A DNA stretch of 10,109 nucleotides from a virus (taxonomy: Duplodnaviria > Heunggongvirae > Uroviricota > Caudoviricetes), in the IMG/VR virus record IMGVR_UViG_2648501392_000020. The stretch is one strand, 5' to 3'. Below are positions 1-9,458 of the stretch, piece by piece. Below the pieces are notes generated by a model. It did not search any database. It was given only the letters and a program-made list of their open reading frames with translations, and was not told the origin of the DNA. The position numbers were made by a program, and so were the translations under genes. The first letter of the stretch is position 1, and each line of letters begins with the position of its first letter.

Positions 1-564
1 TCAACGACTGCGCTTAGCGTGGCGCTCCCAGTTTTCTTGCTTCGCCTGCGCCGTTTTACGTAGTGCGACGTAACACGCCCCGCTGCCGCCATGATGCGGT
101 AGCGCGGTGCAATATGCCTGAACATCATCAAATTCGGTCAGCCAGCGCGCCACATAGCTGCGGACAATATTGGCATGCGATTTATCTTCCCGCCCTTTAC
201 CATGAATAATCAGCACATTACGCAAACCATCCGCCAGGGCTTGTTGAATGAAACTGAACACCATTTTGCGGCACTCTTCCACCGGCTGGCGCAAAAGATT
301 CAGGCTCGCCTGTTGCGGATATTTACCACTGCGCAGCTTATCCAGCACCCCATGTTGCAACCCTTCCCGCCGAAACTCCAGCGGCTGACTTAGTGGGATG
401 ATGTCGAGAAATCCGGTGGTGAGGAAATTATCAAGCTGCAGCGTGTCGATACGCTGCGGCGCACGTTGGTTACGCGTTGGATGCCAGTGGACATCGGTAG
501 CACGTTTCAGCGGCTGGACATCTTCCATGGCGTCAAGAAACAGCGATTTGTCGTCAAGGTTCAT
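1..564 (-). CDS. smrA: Smr-domain protein (SmrA/YdaL-like DNA endonuclease), complete, stop at 1-3
   Basis: 187-aa ORF with ATG at 564 and GGAGG 7 nt upstream. C-terminal Smr motif (LIIHGKGREDKSHANIVRSYVARWL). N-terminus MNLDDKSLFLDAMEDVQPLKR matches my recollection of E. coli SmrA, not verified. Confidence 0.75.
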   Translation of the reverse strand: MNLDDKSLFLDAMEDVQPLKRATDVHWHPTRNQRAPQRIDTLQLDNFLTTGFLDIIPLSQPLEFRREGLQHGVLDKLRSGKYPQQASLNLLRQPVEECRKMVFSFIQQALADGLRNVLIIHGKGREDKSHANIVRSYVARWLTEFDDVQAYCTALPHHGGSGACYVALRKTAQAKQENWERHAKRSR

Positions 565-1338: not shown

Positions 1339-1620
1339 TTAACGTCGTAACCGTTCCGGCTTCTTCCAGTGGTAAGTAATTTTTTCTTTCTCTTGGTACA
1401 TCTGCACGCGGCGACGGTACGACAACATCTCCAGAACTCTGGTGCGTATGTTGCGCATATCCACGCCGTTAAGCTCGATACCGTCACGGCGCATCACCTC
1501 AGCAACAACACGCACATAATTTTCAGCGGTCACGCTGTCCGGCTGCGTGGCCTGTTCGTCAGCCTGCTGGCTGATTCCGGTAACGCGGCGGATTAATCGC
1601 AGTATTTCGGCTTCTGTCAT
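1339..1620 (-). CDS. Hypothetical protein, 93 aa, last gene of the packaging cluster
   Basis: ATG at 1620 with a GGGGG Shine-Dalgarno about 5 nt upstream. Protein-like composition. No family recognised. Confidence 0.55.
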   Translation of the reverse strand: MTEAEILRLIRRVTGISQQADEQATQPDSVTAENYVRVVAEVMRRDGIELNGVDMRNIRTRVLEMLSYRRRVQMYQEKEKITYHWKKPERLRR

Positions 1621-1693
1621 TGTGCCCCCATCGCTCTGATAGCCTGGTGTCGTCAGGTCCTTCCTGGAATTATGGCCCGTTACGGGGCGGCGG

Positions 1694-2236
1694 TTACTCG
1701 CCTTTGTTCTGTAGCAACTTCTCAGGCGCGCTTCCGGTAGTTTCCATCAGGTAATCAGCCAGTATCTGTGGCAGGTTTTCGTCAAGTCTTGCACATGCGT
1801 TACATGCTTTGGCTATTTCCCTTTTTAGTTCATCCAGCATATACGGCCTTATATCGGGAAAGCGCCTTTGCATTGTGAGCGGGAGGCTGTCCATGATTGA
1901 TGAAATCTGACTCGCTAGTTTTGAGATCGCGTAGATGCAAAACTTTGTATCAATCACCTCGCCGCGTTCGCGCTCGTTTTTAAGTTCCTGCGCTTCCGCC
2001 TGGGCCGTCATTAATCTGATTCTTACGCGTAAAAGTTCATCATCATCAATCTCGCCTTTGTCGTTTGTAAGCTGGTTAATTGCATTGTTAACCCTATTGT
2101 CTATCACGCTAGCAACATCATAAAACGCCTCACGGCCTTTACGCTCAACGGGAGTTACTCCCCACTTGTCGAACGCTGTCGCACTTACGCGGCAGCTTTG
2201 CGCCATAGTTTTTTTGTTCATCAGGTGCGATTTCAT
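1694..2236 (-). CDS. Terminase small subunit, lambda Nu1-like
   Basis: Translation aligns with lambda Nu1 as I remember it (ours RLMTAQAEAQELKNERERGEVIDTKFCIYAISKLASQISSIMDSLPLTMQRRFPDI vs lambda RLTRAQADAQELKNARDSAEVVETAFCTFVLSRIAGEIASILDGLPLSVQRRFPEL). Start at ATG 2236 has a GTGGGG Shine-Dalgarno; alternative ATG at 2221 gives MNKKT, matching lambda MEVNKK. The cos site lies immediately upstream. Confidence 0.85.
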   Translation of the reverse strand: MKSHLMNKKTMAQSCRVSATAFDKWGVTPVERKGREAFYDVASVIDNRVNNAINQLTNDKGEIDDDELLRVRIRLMTAQAEAQELKNERERGEVIDTKFCIYAISKLASQISSIMDSLPLTMQRRFPDIRPYMLDELKREIAKACNACARLDENLPQILADYLMETTGSAPEKLLQNKGE

Positions 2237-2263
2237 CAATATCCCCACTTAGTTAAGGTTTCA

Positions 2264-2338
2264 GGTTGGTGTGTTGGTGTTATCTTTCCCTTTTTATTCA
2301 TAGAGATAGAGCGAAAAACAAAACCACCACCACCAACC
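2264..2338. repeat. cosB-like region: inverted GGTTGGTG / CACCAACC repeat blocks flanking an AT-rich spacer; candidate TerS-binding elements
   Basis: ggttggtgtgttggtg at 2264-2279 and accaccaccaccaacc at 2323-2338 on the plus strand, between cosN and the terS start. Differs from the lambda sequence at the equivalent position. Confidence 0.45.
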
Positions 2339-2369
2339 CGAAAAGGCTCATAAATAGCGAAAATCCGCA

Positions 2370-2381
2370 AGGTCGCCGCCC
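2370..2381 (-). other. cosN: lambda-type cohesive-end site (GGGCGGCGACCT on the minus strand) within cos region 2250-2437
   Basis: Minus strand reads GATCCGGCAGGCTACG-GGGCGGCGACCT-TGCGGATTTTCGCTATTTATGAGCCTTTT, near-identical to the lambda right end/left end junction as I remember it. Position upstream of the Nu1-like gene mirrors lambda cosN-cosB-Nu1. Confidence 0.85.
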
Positions 2382-2437
2382 CGTAGCCTGCCGGATCGCC
2401 GGAAAGGACCCGCCAGCCAGAACGGGCCCTAATTTCA

Positions 2438-2821
2438 TCAACCAATCAACTTATAGCGACCATCCCGTGCATTGCGACGTACACGCTCAATCTTGAGGCA
2501 TAGCGCCGCATCTGGCTTTTTGGGGACAGGTACGCGGCAATATTCAGAAGCTCGAGGAATATTGTTTATCCAGTCGATCACTTCACTTAAATACCAGGCC
2601 TTACGCCCTTCCGTAACCTGTACGCGTTCGGGGAACTCTCCACGAGCCTCAAGGTTTAGCAATGTGCGACGGCTAAGGGTAGTAAGTTCCATCACCTGAT
2701 TCATATCAACAAGGCGTTCACTTAAACGCCTTTTGTCAGCAATAGCCTTTAATTCCTCTACTGCTGGATCCGGATACATCATTTCGGCAATTGGCTTAAG
2801 GTCATTGTAATGATTCTGCAT
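2438..2821 (-). CDS. AlpA-family (MerR-like HTH, excisionase/regulator type) DNA-binding protein with about 40-aa N-terminal extension
   Basis: ATG at 2821 with AAGGGGGA Shine-Dalgarno, 11 nt after the gpD-like stop. HTH block ELTTLSRRTLLNLEARGEFPERVQVTEGRKAWYLSEVIDWI fits the AlpA/Phage_AlpA pattern. Confidence 0.7.
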   Translation of the reverse strand: MQNHYNDLKPIAEMMYPDPAVEELKAIADKRRLSERLVDMNQVMELTTLSRRTLLNLEARGEFPERVQVTEGRKAWYLSEVIDWINNIPRASEYCRVPVPKKPDAALCLKIERVRRNARDGRYKLIG

Positions 2822-2832
2822 TGCATCCCCCT

Positions 2833-3174
2833 TTACACACGAGCCAGCGGCTGAACAGAAATACCTGAGCCAACAAACGCGGCAACCTTTGCCGACAGTT
2901 CTCTTACAGACTCAGGCCAGTTCAGAGCATCAACATTTAAAACACCTGTCTTATAAACCTGTGCCTGTGTTTTTTTCGCTGTGTCGATTTGTACAGCGGA
3001 AACATAAACCGCTTTGCCTGCGCTCGTTCCATCCCATACCACTAGCGCACCAGTGGCATCTTCCTGCATCAGTGGCGTAAACGCAGGTATTACCCCTTTA
3101 TTGGCTGAAAATATCCCCAGCGTAGTAACCAGTGCTTCAGTGCCAGACATGAGTTCAGTGTAATGAGTAGCCAT
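2833..3174 (-). CDS. Head decoration protein, lambda gpD-like
   Basis: 113 aa. TPLMQEDATGALVVWDGTSAGKAVYVSAVQ...YKTGVLNVDALNWPE...AAFVGSGISV aligns with lambda gpD ([30 protein letters not shown]...YKSGTFRYEDVLWPE...TAFAGTAISIV). GGGGGAG Shine-Dalgarno, 9 nt after the capsid gene stop. Confidence 0.85.
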   Translation of the reverse strand: MATHYTELMSGTEALVTTLGIFSANKGVIPAFTPLMQEDATGALVVWDGTSAGKAVYVSAVQIDTAKKTQAQVYKTGVLNVDALNWPESVRELSAKVAAFVGSGISVQPLARV

Positions 3175-3183
3175 TGCTCCCCC

Positions 3184-4230
3184 TTAGCCAATGCGAACGG
3201 TAACAAAACGATTGATGCGGGCCGGTATTGGCTGTGGTGCTGAATGTGTCTGCACATATTCAATAGCCGGATCACCAGGCACAATATAGTTTTTCGGTGC
3301 AAGTTCGGCTTTAGTCAGCCCCATCCGAATTAGCTCCGGATCCTGAATACCGCCATAAGCGACAATCCCCTGAAGAGCCGTATTGCCAAGCACCATCAAA
3401 TCAGGATCAAGGAAATATTTTTCAGTTCCGTCCTCGTCGGTATAACGCCCGCTGTAAACAACAATCGCAACATCGCCCATATACCCTTTAAAACTCACCG
3501 AATCACCAAGGTCTTTAAGGGCCGTTTCCAGTTCGGAATTAGAACCTCGACGGGTATCCAGAGCCTCTTTTACAGCTCTGAATGAGCGGTATTTTTTCCA
3601 TACATTGCCGCCCATAATAATGATATTAGTGACTCCCTCACTAAATTCTGCGTAGCTCTCAATATCATCATTTGGGTCAAAAGATCCTTTATCCTTACCT
3701 GACCACTCAGCACCGCCAGACTGAGTGATGATATTTTGTGGTTTAATATTCCAGTCCAGCTCATAACGTTCAATACCATCGCCCACAATGATATTTTTCC
3801 CTGTTGTAATTGCCTGAACGGCAAGCCATTCAATACGTGCACGTATAGCTTTAGCCTGATTTACAATCGCCTGTTTAACTTTAATATTACGCGCCCCAAA
3901 AGCATTGTATTGCTCAGGTGATACACCAGCAGGGCGCACAGCTAGCTTATTTGGATCAATGCTGCTTTTCGGTTTCATATAGCCAGGGCGAATTGTTTTT
4001 GATTCGTATCCCTCATCTCGTGAAACTTTACTGCCCACCATAGGAGAGCAAAACGCCGCGATCGGGATATTTGGATCGTCGATCGTATCAAGAATAATGT
4101 CTCTCGATTCAAACATTACCGAGCGAGTGAAAAACAAACTGGTAAACAACGCATTTAATTTTTTTTGCACATCTTCAGCATTAGCCACCTGCACAAGCTG
4201 TGTAGGCGAATATAAATCAACCATACTCAT
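3184..4230 (-). CDS. Major capsid protein, lambda gpE family
   Basis: Long blocks align with lambda gpE (ITQSGGAEWSGKDK...DPNDDIESYA, RSFRAVKEALDTRRGSNSELETALKDLG, GDVAIVVYSG, MVLGNT). Start chosen at ATG 4230 (MSMVDLY, as lambda MSMYTT) with AAGAGG Shine-Dalgarno. The ORF track start at 4311 is an upstream extension. Confidence 0.9.
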   Translation of the reverse strand: MSMVDLYSPTQLVQVANAEDVQKKLNALFTSLFFTRSVMFESRDIILDTIDDPNIPIAAFCSPMVGSKVSRDEGYESKTIRPGYMKPKSSIDPNKLAVRPAGVSPEQYNAFGARNIKVKQAIVNQAKAIRARIEWLAVQAITTGKNIIVGDGIERYELDWNIKPQNIITQSGGAEWSGKDKGSFDPNDDIESYAEFSEGVTNIIIMGGNVWKKYRSFRAVKEALDTRRGSNSELETALKDLGDSVSFKGYMGDVAIVVYSGRYTDEDGTEKYFLDPDLMVLGNTALQGIVAYGGIQDPELIRMGLTKAELAPKNYIVPGDPAIEYVQTHSAPQPIPARINRFVTVRIG

Positions 4231-4396
4231 CCTCTTTACATTCATTACAAATAATTGTGAATATATTCTATTACCGATGTCTGCTATGCGAATACATGCA
4301 ACCAAGTGCAATGTTGTATAAAATCTGCCGTGACAACTTCAGTGCTGATAATTCGTGTTAATGTATTTACTTCCTTTGGTCGGGATTTATGTAGCA

Positions 4397-4433
4397 TGCC
4401 GGAAAATCTATTTTTTTCCGGCATTTTTTGTTT
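4397..4433 (+). terminator. Intrinsic-terminator-like hairpin oriented for the plus strand (10-bp stem, 7-nt loop, then TTTTTTGTTTG)
   Basis: tgccggaaaa (4397-4406) pairs with ttttccggca (4414-4423), followed by a T-run at 4424-4433. On the minus strand the stem is followed by non-U-rich sequence. Confidence 0.5.
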
Positions 4434-4440
4434 GCAGAAT

Positions 4441-4863
4441 TTAAAACGGTATATTATCGCCGTACGGTTCATCATTCCCTGACTGTTGTTTTGCCCTGTT
4501 CAATGCGTCAGTGGCCTGGCCCTGTTGACCTTTTTTGCCGCCCGGTCGCGCCGTTCTGGCACTGATTACACTATCTGCGATAACCTGCCAGCCCTGCCGC
4601 GTTTCGCCGTTCTGGCCTGTCCACTGGCTCACCTGCATGTTACCCGCCACGCTCAGGAGTTCGCCTTTGTGGTGTTTTGCCAGTGCGTCGGCCTGTCTGC
4701 CAAACGCCAGGACAGATAACCACATCGTCGCCGTTCCGTCATCTGCCTGGCTGCACGGCAGGGGAACCGCCATACTCGCCATCGCCATTTGTGTCCCTTT
4801 GCTAGTGGTCTTTAACTGCGGGTCAGCCACCAGCCGCCCGTAAGCCGCTATCTGTGCTGTCAT
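4441..4863 (-). CDS. ssb: Single-stranded DNA-binding protein (SSB)
   Basis: 140 aa. OB-fold SSB pattern (GRLVADPQL...W..V.AFGRQA...KG..L.V.G......W....G..R) and C-terminal acidic tip ending DNIPF (canonical DDDIPF). GGAGAGGTGG Shine-Dalgarno. Confidence 0.85.
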   Translation of the reverse strand: MTAQIAAYGRLVADPQLKTTSKGTQMAMASMAVPLPCSQADDGTATMWLSVLAFGRQADALAKHHKGELLSVAGNMQVSQWTGQNGETRQGWQVIADSVISARTARPGGKKGQQGQATDALNRAKQQSGNDEPYGDNIPF

Positions 4864-5111
4864 GATTCCACCTCTCCGGTTTTAACGTTGATTGTTGTTA
4901 CCTGTTCCGCTTCGGCAATCTCCCGCTCTGTCAGCGTGGCAAAATTTGCCGCCGTCGTGGTCATGAATGCGCTTATCAGTTCGGGATGTGCTTTCGCGTA
5001 TCCTTCTCCGGCGTGGCGGTCTATCGTTCTGATTGCCACCTTTAAGGCGTGCTCTGTCATGTCTAATGCGCGATATTTTGGTGCTGTCTTATCTCTGGTT
5101 TTTCTGGTCAT
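4860..5111 (-). CDS. Hypothetical protein (about 83 aa); start uncertain
   Basis: ORF track frame 4860-5243 begins with GTG inside the iteron array and has no Shine-Dalgarno. Internal ATG at 5111 has AGGTGG upstream and leaves the iterons intergenic. Stop overlaps the ssb start (ATGA). Confidence 0.45.
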   Translation of the reverse strand: MTRKTRDKTAPKYRALDMTEHALKVAIRTIDRHAGEGYAKAHPELISAFMTTTAANFATLTEREIAEAEQVTTINVKTGEVES

Positions 5112-5113
5112 GC

Positions 5114-5325
5114 GCCCACCTGTGCCCACTTTTTCTACCCACTTTTCATGGTTTCCCACTTCGTCCCACCTGGGATTTTGTGGTTTTATATCGTACTGTT
5201 TCATAAGAATTTTTTTAGTGCCCACTTTTTGGGATGTATACACGTGGGAAAGTGGGCGATTTTGTTAAATTCCAGTTAAATTACCCACTATTCCCACTTT
5301 TAACGCCCACTTTTTACAGTGGGTG
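5114..5325. repeat. Iteron cluster (CCCACT(TTT), at least 9 direct and 3 inverted copies); probable island replication origin
   Basis: cccac(t/c) at 5115, 5125, 5138, 5155, 5165, 5221, 5284, 5293 and 5306; inverted agtggg/gtggga at 5244, 5251 and 5318. Lies immediately 3' of the helicase-initiator gene. Confidence 0.7.
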
Positions 5326-6720
5326 AACATCATCCCCATCGACGCAAATCACGCCGTCTTTTTCCAGTTTGGCTAACCATCGTTTAAGGTGTTTTGTGTC
5401 ATATCCCAGCTTTTTCATGTCATCACGTAGCAGCGGGATCGTGCATTTATCACCATGCTGTATACGTGACCGGATACAACCCCATAAAGCCGTGTGATTT
5501 TCCGTCTTGTTCCCGGCCTCCTCTATGCGCTCCAGTTCAGCAGGGGCGCGGGGAACGTCAATCACCACCATGGACACGATTTCTTCACCCTCAGGATCCG
5601 TAAATACCTCCACGCTCTTAAGGTCGTAGGCGCTTTCTTTTGGCTCCTCCGCGTCCTTCATCTTCTTACATGCTGCAACCAGCGCCGTAGCCTCTGAATG
5701 TTCCCGACTGATTCGGAACTCAGCATCAAGCGCCGCACGGAATGCACTGGAACCCCGCGCCCCTTTCGTCTCATCCTTGCCGGAATGATGCACAACCAGA
5801 ACCGTGGCCCCCGTGGCCTGCTTTATCGCGTCACACCCCTGGATAAACGCCCCCATGTCGCGGGAGTCATTTTCATCATGACCACCAAAGCAACGGGCCA
5901 GCGTGTCAATGACAATCATCCGCACCCTTTCGCCCGTTCTGTCCTGCACTAATCCGGCGGTCCTGATAACCTGCTCCACATAGTCAGGCGATGCAGGGAA
6001 GACAGGCGCGTTAACGATGCACAAATCCGTAACCACCTTGTCGTGGGTTATCTCCCACGCCTTAACGCGGCGTTTTACGCCCATACTGCCTTCGCCAGCG
6101 ATATAGATAACCGCGCCCTTACTTACCCTGCGGCCTCCCCATGCCATACCTGTGGCAACATGACACGACCAGGAAATAGCCAGGAACGATTTATAAGAAC
6201 CGCTGGCCCCGTAGGTGCTGCATAATGATTCAGCCGGAATAAGCCCCTTAATTACGTAGCTTTGCTGCGCGTCGAATCCCTCAGAACCCCATGAGATGGG
6301 AAGTGTGATTTTTCGCTTTCCGCCATTCATGACCAGACTTTCCCCGCGTTCCCAGGTTTCTTTAAGTCGGGGTAGTTGCTCGCTCCAGTCCTCCAGTAGT
6401 TCGAAATTCTCTGAAAGTAACCGCGCTTCCCGGACACCTGCGATCGCCAGTTTGGTGGCAATGGTCAGCATCTGCATATCGTCCAGGTTTCCGGCGCGTA
6501 TGACCTTTGCTCTGTATCGTCCTTCATCAACAATCTGTAAATTGTCCAGTTCGCTTAACTGATAACGGCCCAGGTAAACCGGAGGGATGGGATCGCCTGC
6601 TTTTTTGGCCTGTGCAATCATGTAATGTTCTGCAAAGGAGTGAGCATTATCACCCGCAAAAATAACCGCCTCAGTGTGTTTATCTTTCGGTAACAGTTTT
6701 ACGTTCGGTGCCAGTTTCAT
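5314..6720 (-). CDS. RecA-fold replicative helicase / replication initiator (RepA/DnaB-like, AAA_25-type) with C-terminal winged-helix-like domain
   Basis: 468 aa. Walker A GASGSYKS, Walker B-like MIVIDTL, HHSGKD motif. C-terminal basic helical segment (LLRDDMKKLGYDTKHLKRWLAKLEKDG) adjacent to the iterons. AGGGG Shine-Dalgarno. Confidence 0.85.
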   Translation of the reverse strand: MKLAPNVKLLPKDKHTEAVIFAGDNAHSFAEHYMIAQAKKAGDPIPPVYLGRYQLSELDNLQIVDEGRYRAKVIRAGNLDDMQMLTIATKLAIAGVREARLLSENFELLEDWSEQLPRLKETWERGESLVMNGGKRKITLPISWGSEGFDAQQSYVIKGLIPAESLCSTYGASGSYKSFLAISWSCHVATGMAWGGRRVSKGAVIYIAGEGSMGVKRRVKAWEITHDKVVTDLCIVNAPVFPASPDYVEQVIRTAGLVQDRTGERVRMIVIDTLARCFGGHDENDSRDMGAFIQGCDAIKQATGATVLVVHHSGKDETKGARGSSAFRAALDAEFRISREHSEATALVAACKKMKDAEEPKESAYDLKSVEVFTDPEGEEIVSMVVIDVPRAPAELERIEEAGNKTENHTALWGCIRSRIQHGDKCTIPLLRDDMKKLGYDTKHLKRWLAKLEKDGVICVDGDDVHPL

Positions 6721-7016
6721 TTTTTACCCCTGAATCCGTTAATCATGGTTTTCAGCTTCTGGATGTTTGCCCGTGCCCTGGCGTTGCTGGTGGACACGTT
6801 ATGCGGCGCGGTCTGTACCAGAGAAAAATCACGCCGGAACTGATAAACAGGCATCACGCAATCATATTCGTAACCTTCACGGCGGTAGGTTACGCGCCGT
6901 TCTTCCACGCCCTTAATCATTACCGTGCCGCCGTACTGGTCGCGGTAAATATCGCCGCGCGTAAATTTAGGGTGAGTGTTGCCACTGGCAGTTAAGCCAG
7001 AATATTTAAGTTTCAT
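6717..7016 (-). CDS. Hypothetical protein, 99 aa
   Basis: ATG at 7016. Stop overlaps the helicase start by 4 nt (translational coupling). No family recognised. Confidence 0.55.
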   Translation of the reverse strand: MKLKYSGLTASGNTHPKFTRGDIYRDQYGGTVMIKGVEERRVTYRREGYEYDCVMPVYQFRRDFSLVQTAPHNVSTSNARARANIQKLKTMINGFRGKK

Positions 7017-7021
7017 TATTT

Positions 7022-7255
7022 TTATTCTCCGGTGTGCTGTTCTTTATATCTGTCGTGCAATAGATCTATTTCTTGCAGTTCCATTATTACAGGCTCAAGA
7101 AGCGTTATTAATGCTGTGGCAATTCTTGATTTTTGTTTGTCGCGTTCATTGTCGCCAAGTGTTTCAAGCCATATGCGTAATATTTCCATCATGCTTTCAC
7201 TGTGAGAAAGTGCAAGAAATGCGCGGTCTATTGTTTCGAGGTAAATATCACGCAT
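7022..7255 (-). CDS. Hypothetical protein, 77 aa
   Basis: ATG at 7255 preceded by GGTGGGG. The ORF track start at 7267 is GTG. 5-nt gap to the next gene. Confidence 0.5.
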   Translation of the reverse strand: MRDIYLETIDRAFLALSHSESMMEILRIWLETLGDNERDKQKSRIATALITLLEPVIMELQEIDLLHDRYKEQHTGE

Positions 7256-7256
7256 A

Positions 7257-7478
7257 TTAATCCCCACCCGTTGTTTTTCTTAAAACAGTTTCCGTTACGA
7301 AATCAGCATAGTTAGCGGCGATATCAAGAATATTTAGCCCTGTATCCCTATGCTCATCAGTGCAAAGAAAGAAAAAAGCCACCCGCATAATTTCAGATAT
7401 TGACGAAAGCGCATCAGCTGCATTATCAGGAACGCCGGAAAATTCCTGTTTCAGGGAATTAAAACGATCATCACGCAT
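7257..7478 (-). CDS. Hypothetical protein, 73 aa
   Basis: ATG at 7478 with AGGGGGG Shine-Dalgarno. Stop sits 1 nt before the next start. Confidence 0.55.
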   Translation of the reverse strand: MRDDRFNSLKQEFSGVPDNAADALSSISEIMRVAFFFLCTDEHRDTGLNILDIAANYADFVTETVLRKTTGGD

Positions 7479-7836
7479 GTTTACCCCCCTGAATGACCTG
7501 ATAACCGCAACTGGTCAGCAACTCGATAAATTCCGGCAGTGTGCCGAAACAGCAATCATCACGCAGCCGTTCGCAGGATACCTCGACGCCGTTTTCGTAG
7601 TGACTCACCATACATCCGGTAAAATGCAGATCATCATCGTGATGGCTCGTTGACGGCTTAATCAGTCGCGCACGTTCCGCCAGTTCCAGCAATGCTTCAA
7701 CGCTTCCGGCAATTGCACCATCCGGCAGGTGATAATTACGCACTATGCGCCCGTTCTCCACATTGACCAGCAACTGCCCGGTAAATTTCTCGTCAAACTG
7801 AATGCTGTTAAGGTCAGAAATTGACAGGTTATGCAT
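7471..7836 (-). CDS. Hypothetical protein, 121 aa
   Basis: ATG at 7836 with perfect AGGAGG 6 nt upstream. The ORF track start at 7854 lacks a Shine-Dalgarno. 8-nt overlap with the downstream gene. Confidence 0.6.
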   Translation of the reverse strand: MHNLSISDLNSIQFDEKFTGQLLVNVENGRIVRNYHLPDGAIAGSVEALLELAERARLIKPSTSHHDDDLHFTGCMVSHYENGVEVSCERLRDDCCFGTLPEFIELLTSCGYQVIQGGKHA

Positions 7837-8053
7837 GGTGCACCTCCTGCACATCAGCCATGATAATTTTTCCGGCCTTATCCAGTGCCTGATCGGCTTT
7901 TAGCTGCACAAATGCTAAATAATGGAAGATGCATTCTGATTCTCTGGCTGCGTGTTTATGCGCCCTGTCAGCAATAACAGAAATATCAATAAGCGCGTGC
8001 ATCAGCGTAGTGAGCGCGGCGGCTGCTGCGTCCGGTGTGGTTTTATTGCACAT
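7829..8053 (-). CDS. Hypothetical protein, 74 aa
   Basis: ATG at 8053 with GGGGGTAGG upstream. Overlaps neighbours at both ends as part of the coupled operon. Confidence 0.5.
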   Translation of the reverse strand: MCNKTTPDAAAAALTTLMHALIDISVIADRAHKHAARESECIFHYLAFVQLKADQALDKAGKIIMADVQEVHHA

Positions 8054-8249
8054 GGCCTACCCCCTGGCGAATACGGGCAGCGAATACCATCACGCAGCCA
8101 TCAGGAGATTGCTGACGCGCTTCCTGTTCGCTGGTGGCCTCAATGGTAATCACGCGCGGTTGTGCCGTGCTCAGGGCGATAAAACGCCAGATGTATTTAT
8201 TCAGGTTGTACGAGTCCCGCCCTTGCGGGTGTGTGGTATGATTTAACAT
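8043..8249 (-). CDS. Hypothetical protein, 68 aa; first gene of the leftward operon (shares frame with the tail of the 471-codon ORF)
   Basis: Internal ATG at 8249 with GAGGT Shine-Dalgarno 5 nt upstream, about 100 nt downstream of a TTGACA-N17-TAAAGT promoter-like element. Confidence 0.4.
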   Translation of the reverse strand: MLNHTTHPQGRDSYNLNKYIWRFIALSTAQPRVITIEATSEQEARQQSPDGCVMVFAARIRQGVGHVQ

Positions 8250-8445: not shown

Positions 8446-8751
8446 ATGGCTACAGGTTCAAAAAACGCAAAATCACAATCACTGACAGCTCGGATCCCGC
8501 ATGATGTTATTGAAGGCATGGAATCCGTAAAACTGGACGGTGAAAGCAACGCCGGATTCATCGTAACCGCCATGCGCGGTGAAATCGCCCGCCGCCAGGC
8601 AGAAGGAAGCGGAGAAAACCTCCTGGTTTCTTCGCTCGATGCACTGGCGCAGGTGGAAAAAATCGGAGTCAAAGCAGCCGAGGAGATCGGGCAACTCATC
8701 ACCGTCGCGCGTGAAGAACTCCAGCGTCGCAAGGCCAAAGAGCAGGAGTAA
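8446..8751 (+). CDS. Ribbon-helix-helix-like small DNA-binding protein (candidate island regulator/repressor), 101 aa
   Basis: ATG at 8446 with GAGAGGA Shine-Dalgarno. N-terminal SLTARIPHDVIEGMESVKL...NAGFIVTAMRGEIARRQ fits a strand-helix-helix pattern; the C-terminal half is charged and helical. Composition is clearly more protein-like than the antisense frame. Confidence 0.6.
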   Translation: MATGSKNAKSQSLTARIPHDVIEGMESVKLDGESNAGFIVTAMRGEIARRQAEGSGENLLVSSLDALAQVEKIGVKAAEEIGQLITVAREELQRRKAKEQE

Positions 8752-8808
8752 CCATCACCAGCGCCGTGGTGTGAGTAACTACGGCGCATTGCTATGCAGG
8801 ACAACACA

Positions 8809-8982
8809 ATGACCGATAAAGAATTGACCAAAACATTATCACCGACACGGAAAAGACGGCGCAGAAAGATAGAGCATGAATCAGAAAGATTCGCGCCATG
8901 TGCTTTTGCCCTTGAGCAATTTCTTAAAGAGTACAGGGAAAAGCGCTCATTGCAGGTATGGCAACGAACTGAACCAGACTGA
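8809..8982 (+). CDS. Small basic hypothetical protein (about 57 aa)
   Basis: ATG at 8809 (alternative 8794) with weak AGGA upstream. Lies between the RHH gene and the plus-strand terminator. Lys/Arg/Glu-rich composition. Confidence 0.35.
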   Translation: MTDKELTKTLSPTRKRRRRKIEHESERFAPCAFALEQFLKEYREKRSLQVWQRTEPD

Positions 8983-9061
8983 TTGCATTGCCCACCAGCC
9001 GCAAATGTGGCATTGTTGGCGATGCTCATGCGTTGGGGATAACGTGTAGCTTGTGTCGAGG

Positions 9062-9090
9062 GGCCACCGTAGCGGGTGGCCTTTGTTTTG
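9062..9090 (+). terminator. Intrinsic terminator for the plus-strand RHH operon
   Basis: GGCCACC (9062-9068), loop gtagcg, GGTGGCC (9075-9081), then TTTGTTTTG (9082-9090). Confidence 0.6.
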
Positions 9091-9458
9091 CCTGTTATCC
9101 GGCAATTGTGGCGCTTCGCCACACGGTTGATATAATCCCACTGCTCAGATTCATTTTTTGCGCAGTAGGTTAATTGTTCACAAAGGCGCTCCGGCAACGG
9201 GGCGCTTTTTGTTTTTATTAGTTTGTAGAAACCTGACTCAGAGATAATGCTCATATTCTGATTGCCGTCAGGGGTGTAAGTTAAATTTACTCCCTTTTTA
9301 TCATCAAACATCTGCAACGCTCTGGCGTTAACAATATTGGTTTCACTCCCGCCAGTAAGGCCGGAAATAACCGGAATAATTTCGGCAAAATTTTGCAGAT
9401 TCTGTTTTTCAGGACGAACGAAGCCCCGCCCTTGTTCGGGAGAATATCCAGTATTCAT
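9084..9458 (-). CDS. Bro-N / antirepressor-like ORF, 5' protein-like portion only; the frame stays open to 8043, so the 3' end is undefined
   Basis: ATG at 9458. Segment GNQNMSIISESGFYKLIKTKSAPLPERL resembles the Bro-N core (ISESGLY.LI.RS..P.A). No plus-strand ORF competes in 9180-9458. Downstream, the same frame has Ser/Cys/Arg-rich antisense-like composition. Confidence 0.4.

Follow-up and report, generated by a model that had tools for sequence, protein, structure and literature searches.

In bacteriophage lambda, OOP is a short non-coding RNA that has its own promoter and a strong intrinsic terminator and lies antisense to an operon near a gene of the replication region. Hfq-type small RNA genes with CU-rich seeds, such as those for ChiX and CyaR, combine a promoter, a 5' region with a CU-rich tract, an AU-rich linker and a terminator with a long U-tail in 60-90 nt. 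For the phage-inducible chromosomal islands (PICIs) of Gram-negative bacteria, we know of no account of how the capsid and packaging operon is turned on. The family with EcCICFT073 as its prototype is covered by PMC6092414 (2018), which described these islands, and by PMC6739421; the EcCICFT073 genes for the capsid (c1499), the decoration protein (c1500) and Rpp (c1503) are already described there (PMC6092414; PMC6739421), and Gram-negative PICIs are reported to be unidirectionally transcribed (PMC6092414, 2018). A satellite-encoded small RNA has been described for the Vibrio cholerae PLE satellites, where SviR acts in trans, is conserved across the PLE lineage and has experimentally mapped targets (bioRxiv 10.1101/2022.04.08.487710).

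Here, we analyzed a stretch of 10,109 nucleotides from the IMG/VR virus record IMGVR_UViG_2648501392_000020, hereafter the window. Between the ssb and capsid genes of an EcCICFT073-type island it carries a hairpin with a T-run (4396-4433) that we consider probably to be the Rho-independent terminator of a small, unannotated, non-coding transcription unit on the plus strand. Such a small RNA (sRNA) gene has most likely been neither annotated nor described before for these satellites, and no paper describing an RNA at this locus was found in the literature. As with OOP, the predicted RNA is short and non-coding, runs against the operon direction and is complementary to operon RNA. However, OOP overlaps the 3' coding end of cII, whereas the predicted RNA would end 7 nt ahead of the stop codon of ssb (end of the U-tract at 4433, stop codon at 4441-4443) and does not overlap the opposed coding sequence. 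Furthermore, no sequence similarity to OOP was found, and the present element belongs to a satellite and sits at the boundary of replication and capsid genes. With SviR it would share the character of a satellite-encoded non-coding RNA, and SviR sets a precedent for RNA-level regulation in satellite-helper systems, although satellite family and host are different and the mapped targets are those of SviR only. The Hfq-type sRNA genes are matched in layout, from which the predicted RNA differs in having no Rfam match. Bidirectional terminators likewise present a single GC-rich intergenic hairpin that faces antisense transcription; in these, an A-tract and a U-tract flank the stem, whereas here the U-tract is on the plus side only (66 of 66 homologous regions).

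Gene context of the intergenic region

Several E. coli strains, among them E110019, have in their chromosome an island with 100% identity to the window, located between abgR and smrA; TW11681, TW10590 and 504239 are further carrier strains. On the minus strand, the genes for an integrase and AlpA are followed by several small genes, a RepA-type helicase gene, ssb and a lambda-E-type capsid gene, and then by a gpD-type decoration gene and the genes for a 127-aa winged-helix protein and a Nu1-like protein. This synteny is the same as in EcCICFT073, the prototype Gram-negative PICI. From RefSeq annotation, synteny and Pfam we recognized the complete EcCICFT073-type set, i.e. int, AlpA, primase/helicase, ssb, lambda-E-like capsid, gpD-like decoration, an Rpp-like winged helix-turn-helix protein and a Nu1-like protein, all read in the same direction over about 10-11 kb at a chromosomal site. 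The Pfam matches in the window were Phage_AlpA, AAA_25, SSB, Phage_cap_E, HDPD and Phage_Nu1. The two genes that border the region of interest are:

4441-4863, minus strand: ssb, last gene of the replication module, without a gene-sense terminator after it
3184-4224, minus strand: lambda-E-type major capsid gene, first gene of the packaging module

The gap between them, which an earlier note on this DNA had put at 210 bp, does exist and measures 216 bp (4225-4440, from the ssb stop at 4441-4443 to the capsid ATG at 4224). It is present in 335 of 5,426 complete E. coli genomes (about 6%). The same note had held that the hairpin opposes all surrounding genes, and this agrees with the annotation, in which every gene from 1339 to 8249 is on the minus strand. 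Plus-strand genes occur only at 8446-8982 and have terminators of their own at 9059-9209.

A predicted terminator on the plus strand

The terminator-like structure next to ssb consists of two elements:

4396-4424, plus strand: terminator hairpin with an 11-bp perfect stem (ATGCCGGAAAA/TTTTCCGGCAT), kept at this place in 66 of 66 homologous regions
4425-4433, plus strand: U-tract TTTTTGTTT, part of the intrinsic terminator

The hairpin reads ATGCCGGAAAA-TCTATTT-TTTTCCGGCAT, with 11 perfect pairs (five of them G-C) and a 7-nt loop, and the T-run (TTTTTGTTT; as RNA, UUUUUGUUU) begins directly 3' of the stem. Folded as plus-strand RNA it has -16.3 kcal/mol (z = -3.9), and none of 200 shuffled sequences was equally stable. 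It ranks among the three strongest terminator-like sites of the window, which holds 20 such sites against 10.9 +/- 3.5 expected. A stable stem-loop containing G-C pairs and a 3' U-rich tract, the two parts of an intrinsic terminator, are thus both present on the plus strand. On the minus strand the tail behind the hairpin is GCUACAUAAAUCCC, which is devoid of a U-tract, so that the plus-strand orientation is the correct one and the strong plus-strand hairpin with T-run claimed earlier is borne out. The minus-strand U-tract of a terminator that serves the ssb operon, or both directions, was not found here.

Loci were collected with the capsid protein as anchor, and the region upstream of the capsid gene was extracted from reference genomes (4 loci from other genera), metagenomes (46 loci) and IMG/VR. 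The scan of genome contigs alone gave 4 loci; the diversity came from the metagenome and IMG/VR scans. The resulting comparison set drew on E. coli and other Enterobacteriaceae and comprised 66 distinct intergenic regions homologous to that of the window, in two groups. Group 1 is the E. coli type, including the window, with capsids at least 92% identical. Group 2 has capsids 79-86% identical and consists mostly of IMG/VR and metagenome contigs, with Kluyvera, Kosakonia, Cedecea and Superficieibacter as named members.

A stable hairpin was found at the equivalent place in all 66 regions, with stems that differ by lineage (GCCGGAAAA, AAGCGGGYC, AAGCAGCTCGC, AACGGGCC and GAGACGGGTC). On the plus (antisense) strand, at least five T within the 8 nt past the stem were counted in 51 of the 66, and in the others the T residues fall within the 3' arm of the hairpin; a run of at least five T on the gene-sense side was seen in none of the 66. 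The terminator helix of group 2 showed compensatory exchanges between A-U and G-C pairs. Pairing was possible in 189 of 190 cells when the helix was read on the plus strand versus 176 of 190 on the gene-sense strand, and G-U pairs numbered 14 versus 1; in the sense RNA, each of these 14 would become a C-A mismatch. The constant side of the T-run, the turnover of the stems and the G-U bias together indicate that the plus-strand orientation was selected and is not accidental. On this comparative evidence, we regard the hairpin as a genuine, selected intrinsic terminator of the plus strand.

Variation was also seen among E. coli islands. The T-run within the hairpin loop (4410-4416) ranges from 5 to 8 T among otherwise near-identical islands, as expected from slippage. 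In one E. coli variant (locus L077), the stem contains a mismatch and an additional gene-sense terminator lies upstream.

Promoter candidates upstream of the hairpin

Two candidates for a plus-strand promoter were identified, P2 being the one closer to the hairpin:

4356-4364, plus strand: P2, extended -10 TGtTAATGT (TGTTAATGT), with TGnTAnnnT at the corresponding site of all 66 regions
4315-4324, plus strand: P1 candidate TGTATAAAAT, with TATAAA at 4317-4322 and overlapping TAAAAT at 4319-4324; its minus strand is the conserved TTTATACA

The motif TGnTAnnnT precedes the hairpin on the plus strand in all 66 regions, in 16 variants at the free positions. The opposite strand of the same interval has it in 0 of 66, and it arose in 11% of shuffled intervals. 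The group 2 alignment (A2), with a mean column identity of 62%, has no more than seven invariant columns, and T43, G44, T46 and A47 of the motif make up four of them; T51, the near-invariant -7 T, is at least 90% conserved. Across the whole window the motif occurs 17 times, where about 20 matches are expected, and since it is common on its own, the promoter argument rests on conservation and position. No -35 element was evident for P2. A promoter on the same strand as the putative sRNA gene is recognized by sequence only. From P2, the predicted start lies 7 nt after the hexamer at about 4371 (range 4369-4372).

The earlier note had pointed to a TATAAA at about 4313. The motif is present, although at 4317-4322, within P1. 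In the form TAnnnT, P1 was found in 64 of the 66 regions, inside the conserved block TGTATAAA(G/A)T. The same block also belongs to the control region of the opposite-strand capsid promoter, which is composed of TTTATACA and the TTGCAC repeats. Of the two, P2 is the better supported promoter and the TATAAA motif the weaker candidate; P1 could act as a second, weaker promoter, and the RNA made from it would begin at about 4331 and measure about 103 nt. Conservation in the region is lowest between P1 and P2, where 55% of the columns are invariant in the E. coli type; the ssb 3' end has 5%.

Features of the predicted RNA

Initiation at P2 and arrest at the hairpin would give an RNA of about 62 nt (62-63; 4371-4433, plus strand) that consists of UUCCUUUGGUCGGGAUUUAUGUAGC and the terminator. 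Its 5' part is:

4371-4395, plus strand: 5' body of the predicted sRNA, UUCCUUUGGUCGGGAUUUAUGUAGC, CU-rich and anti-Shine-Dalgarno-like, with a weak 4-bp 5' hairpin (UCCU/GGGA)

An RNA of roughly 100 nt that ends near 4430 had been suggested before, with a barrier separating early from late transcription as the alternative. The plus-strand unit of that proposal is retained, being consistent with the orientation in 66 of 66 regions, the conserved plus-strand promoter motif and the G-U pairs that favour the plus strand, while the size is revised to about 62 nt and the other promoter is favoured.

The part predicted to be transcribed proved to be conserved in both groups, be it in sequence or in structure. 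In the E. coli type (53 distinct sequences), conservation across the 330-nt region peaks at 4370-4395, where 23 of 26 columns do not vary, i.e. 88% versus 5% in the ssb 3' end. The 5' hairpin of this type has only four base pairs and is broken in some variants. In group 2, the predicted start, again 7 nt past the hexamer, coincides with the first base of a covarying 5' hairpin whose arms are GTTATTT/AAATAAC, GTCGTTT/AGATGAC, GTCGC/GCGAC or GTTAC/GTAAC around a conserved UUCCUCC loop. The group 2 RNAs would have this 5' hairpin, an AU-rich linker and the terminator within about 64-89 nt. In the model-fitted alignment of group 2, 90.2% of the cells pair and nine pairs change on both sides, values that none of 500 shuffles reached and that were lower in all slid controls, although pair counts from a structure-fitted alignment are biased towards that structure. 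The G-U evidence from the 5' hairpin is mixed, with internal pairs favouring the plus strand (five sequence types) and a loop-closing U-G the other strand (one type), and a strand call from the 5' hairpin alone was therefore dropped.

A covariance model of group 2 detected neither the E. coli type nor EcCICFT073, which means that homology of the RNA across lineages is architectural only. Neither the window nor any of 13 related loci matched an Rfam family at the gathering score, and a search of 3900-4900 gave nothing relevant at E <= 10. The PapR and C271 sRNAs of uropathogenic E. coli were considered and rejected as unrelated because their cloning primers do not match the locus.

No conserved open reading frame was found in the unit. 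A 27-codon frame at 4362-4445 encodes a hydrophobic peptide (MYLLPLVGIYVACRKIYFFPAFFVCRI), is not conserved and runs past the terminator, and the most frequent E. coli variant (ATATCT) lacks its ATG. In other genera, mini-ORFs after a sense-strand GGAGG have no conserved start codon.

The capsid control region and a model for transcription

The capsid operon appears to be served by a sigma-70-like promoter and a set of repeats upstream of it:

4265-4292, minus strand: capsid-operon promoter, sigma-70-like, TTCGCA, 16-nt spacer, TAGAAT
4286-4311, minus strand: three direct repeats TTGCAC, TTGCAT and TCGCAT with 10-bp spacing (TTGC-N6-TTGC), conserved across genera

The -10 element of this promoter aligns with the conserved GTGATAGCAT of other genera. 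Upstream of it, the minus strand reads from 4322 to 4286 as the conserved TTTATACA and then the TTGC-type repeats. The two predicted divergent promoters thus stand back-to-back, about 110 bp apart, with a common control region, and the TTGCAC-type repeats between them are presumed to bind a protein that regulates capsid transcription, with AlpA, the 127-aa winged-helix protein and helper CII as candidates. TTGC-N6-TTGC is the same core as in the lambda CII sites at pRE, pI and paQ; a CII-type capsid promoter was rejected, as the spacing of the repeats to the -10 element does not fit. In the CFT073 transcriptome, c1498-c1501 rise together at 37 degrees C (PMC12890032), a joint response that fits a separate promoter for the capsid module.

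We propose the following model. Transcription of the plus strand would start at about 4371 from the extended -10 TGTTAATGT (4356-4364) and stop at about 4432. The product, about 62 nt long, would comprise a CU-rich 5' part, then a short linker, and finally the stem-loop and U-tail of the terminator. TAAAAT/TATAAA (4317-4324) could provide a second and weaker start, for a product of about 103 nt. The unit would be placed back-to-back with the promoter of the capsid (packaging) operon, with the TTGCAC-repeat control region between both promoters. As the terminator would end the RNA 7 nt short of ssb, antisense transcription would be kept out of the replication module. Transcripts in the gene sense meet no U-tract at the hairpin, and read-through from ssb towards the capsid operon would be possible; such a read-through RNA would be perfectly complementary to the sRNA.

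Comparison with other PICI lineages

EcCICFT073 and a capsid-forming type, which are other PICI lineages, likewise carry an antisense-facing terminator where ssb gives way to the capsid module. EcCICFT073 and a relative (locus L157) have two terminators after the replication module, a gene-sense one (GCCGGAGCAATCCGGC followed by T6) and an antisense-facing one (GCCCGATAAG...CTTATCGGGC followed by T7). Two terminators, sense and antisense-facing, were likewise found in an island with a protease-capsid fusion gene (locus L158), and there the antisense-facing one is preceded by AACUCCUUUGUCG, which resembles ACUUCCUUUGGUCG of the window. The island of the window has the antisense-facing terminator only, from which it follows that early transcripts probably run on towards the capsid genes.

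Further observations were made in these lineages. In E. coli CFT073 (locus L155, 11230-11420), the EcCICFT073 terminators stand back-to-back after perC, the gene-sense one first and then the antisense-facing one. Upstream of c1498 and the capsid gene, EcCICFT073 carries the palindromic ATTATAAT, a perfect -10 on both strands, and divergent transcription is therefore possible in this island. In the protease-capsid fusion island, the antisense-facing terminator at 1150-1270 reads AAGCGCCTCCGG...GGGGGCGCTT followed by T5 and is preceded by AACTCCTTTGTCG, similar to ACTTCCTTTGGTCG of the window; reading by eye gave a plus-strand promoter-like TTGACG, 17-nt spacer, CAGTAT. This unit may encode a relative of the predicted RNA in a further PICI lineage. 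A Cedecea island (locus L005) contains at 2450-2700 a dense, iteron-like array of GAACCACGT repeats directly upstream of the equivalent hairpin, and the array is probably a replication origin.

Search for base-pairing targets

Duplex prediction of the RNA against the island's own translation start regions returned no outlier (best z = -2.7). Repression of capsid translation by pairing with the Shine-Dalgarno sequence was rejected, as the capsid start was among the worst scores of the island and, judged by eye, pairing would extend over no more than 4-7 bp. Among 64 translation start regions of lambda there was again no outlier; ninD came out on top for three of the RNAs, with z of about -2.1 to -2.5, which is not significant, and was discarded. 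A blastn search of 4340-4436 against 50,697 phage records gave chance matches only, with no coliphage and no complementary site among them. Perfect complementarity of the predicted RNA was found only to the hypothetical ssb read-through RNA.

Weighing of alternative explanations

The main alternative is that the terminator merely insulates: P2-driven, divergent or spurious antisense transcription from the AT-rich control region would be kept off ssb, rep and the origin, and the RNA would have no function. In favour of this explanation, the terminator abuts the ssb stop codon with a gap of 7 nt, and every lineage preserves the direction in which it points although the stem may change in sequence. 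The explanation also accords with the target searches among island starts, lambda starts and phage records, which were without a find, and with EcCICFT073, where the palindromic ATTATAAT -10 could fire both ways and is followed by an antisense-facing terminator. However, no part of the region is more conserved in the E. coli type than the 5' body of the predicted RNA, the hairpin with the CCUCC loop is kept by compensatory changes in group 2, and a dedicated extended -10 in 66 of 66 regions is unexpected for mere noise that has to be suppressed. We therefore judge pure insulation to be unlikely. Were it nevertheless correct, the site would still be a clean one-way terminator that lets early transcription pass to the late genes and blocks the opposite direction.

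The hairpin could also belong to the minus strand and act on the mRNA of the ssb operon as a weak terminator, a 3'-end stabilizer or a processing site, with the T-run being just an upstream A-tract. As minus-strand RNA it is equally stable (-15.6 kcal/mol, z = -5.3), and on the gene-sense strand it sits 17 nt past the ssb stop codon, where hairpins at operon ends are expected. Against such a role stand the sense-side U-tract in 0 of 66 regions and the 14 plus-strand G-U pairs that turn into C-A mismatches in the sense RNA. In addition, the lineages that do terminate in the sense direction (EcCICFT073, L157, L158 and L077) have a separate hairpin with its own T-run for this besides the antisense-facing one, and we consider a gene-sense element improbable, although the hairpin may have a stabilizing effect on the ssb mRNA as a secondary role. 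Yet lower is our estimate for a DNA-level element (a cos or pac site, a replication origin or a protein-binding palindrome) or a small plus-strand protein gene (4362-4445), which we hold to be very improbable. The palindrome does lie at the boundary of the replication and packaging modules, the Cedecea island has iterons just upstream of the equivalent hairpin, and the hydrophobic 27-aa frame (MYLLPLVGIYVACRKIYFFPAFFVCRI) spans the palindrome. But the arm sequences vary between lineages while the pairing stays, which is typical of an RNA structure and not of a protein-binding site. As explanations of the hairpin, cos and ori were rejected because a cos-like GGGGCGGCGG lies elsewhere, at 1684 beside the Nu1-like gene, and the iterons are outside the hairpin. 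The protein gene was rejected as well, as the frame has no Shine-Dalgarno sequence, is without its ATG in the most frequent E. coli variant and reaches a stop codon only past the U-tract.

Possible role of the RNA

Returning to the small plus-strand RNA as the preferred reading, two modes of action can be envisaged by analogy. The RNA could act in cis on the read-through RNA, in the way that OOP of lambda affects the mRNA of cII, or it could act in trans through its anti-Shine-Dalgarno-like tract, as does SviR of the Vibrio PLE. Our most far-reaching suggestion, which we regard as tentative and somewhat doubtful, is that a conserved, undescribed sRNA is encoded at the boundary of replication and packaging in PICIs of the EcCICFT073 family and probably in further enterobacterial PICI lineages. 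Its anti-Shine-Dalgarno-like tract (UUCCUCC, CUUCCUUU) would act in trans on mRNAs of the helper or the island, or in cis on early read-through, and would thereby time capsid and packaging expression or interfere with the helper. If this is true, the conflict between satellite and helper in E. coli would include a layer at the RNA level, much as with SviR in Vibrio PLE. A conserved divergent sRNA unit beside the capsid promoter would be an unrecognized regulatory part of this satellite family, and engineered PICI delivery vehicles normally carry the intergenic region along unexamined.

Further observations on the island

The two strongest terminator-like sites of the window are tandem plus-strand terminators at 9059-9084 and 9182-9209. 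Both follow a YlcI/YnfO-like gene (8446-8751) and an ORF of 57 aa (8809-8982).

The protein annotated as terminase small subunit (180 aa; 1694-2236, minus strand) covers positions 35-162 of the 164 positions of the Nu1 profile, and its N-terminal DNA-binding part seems to be absent. The separate 127-aa AlpA-type winged-helix protein encoded two genes upstream of the Nu1-like gene (2438-2821, minus strand) is probably an Rpp-like packaging redirector. At the end of the Nu1-like gene, the window has GGGGCGGCGGTTACTCGCC (1684-1704). This resembles the start of the lambda cohesive end (GGGCGGCGACCT) and makes GGGGCGGCGGTTACTCGCC a candidate for the cos site of the island.

At the edge of the window (1-564), the first 574 bases, which belong to the flanking host gene smrA, match the record of 'Escherichia phage vB_EcoS-683R6' at 98.3%. 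This suggests that the phage record contains host DNA or transduced DNA.
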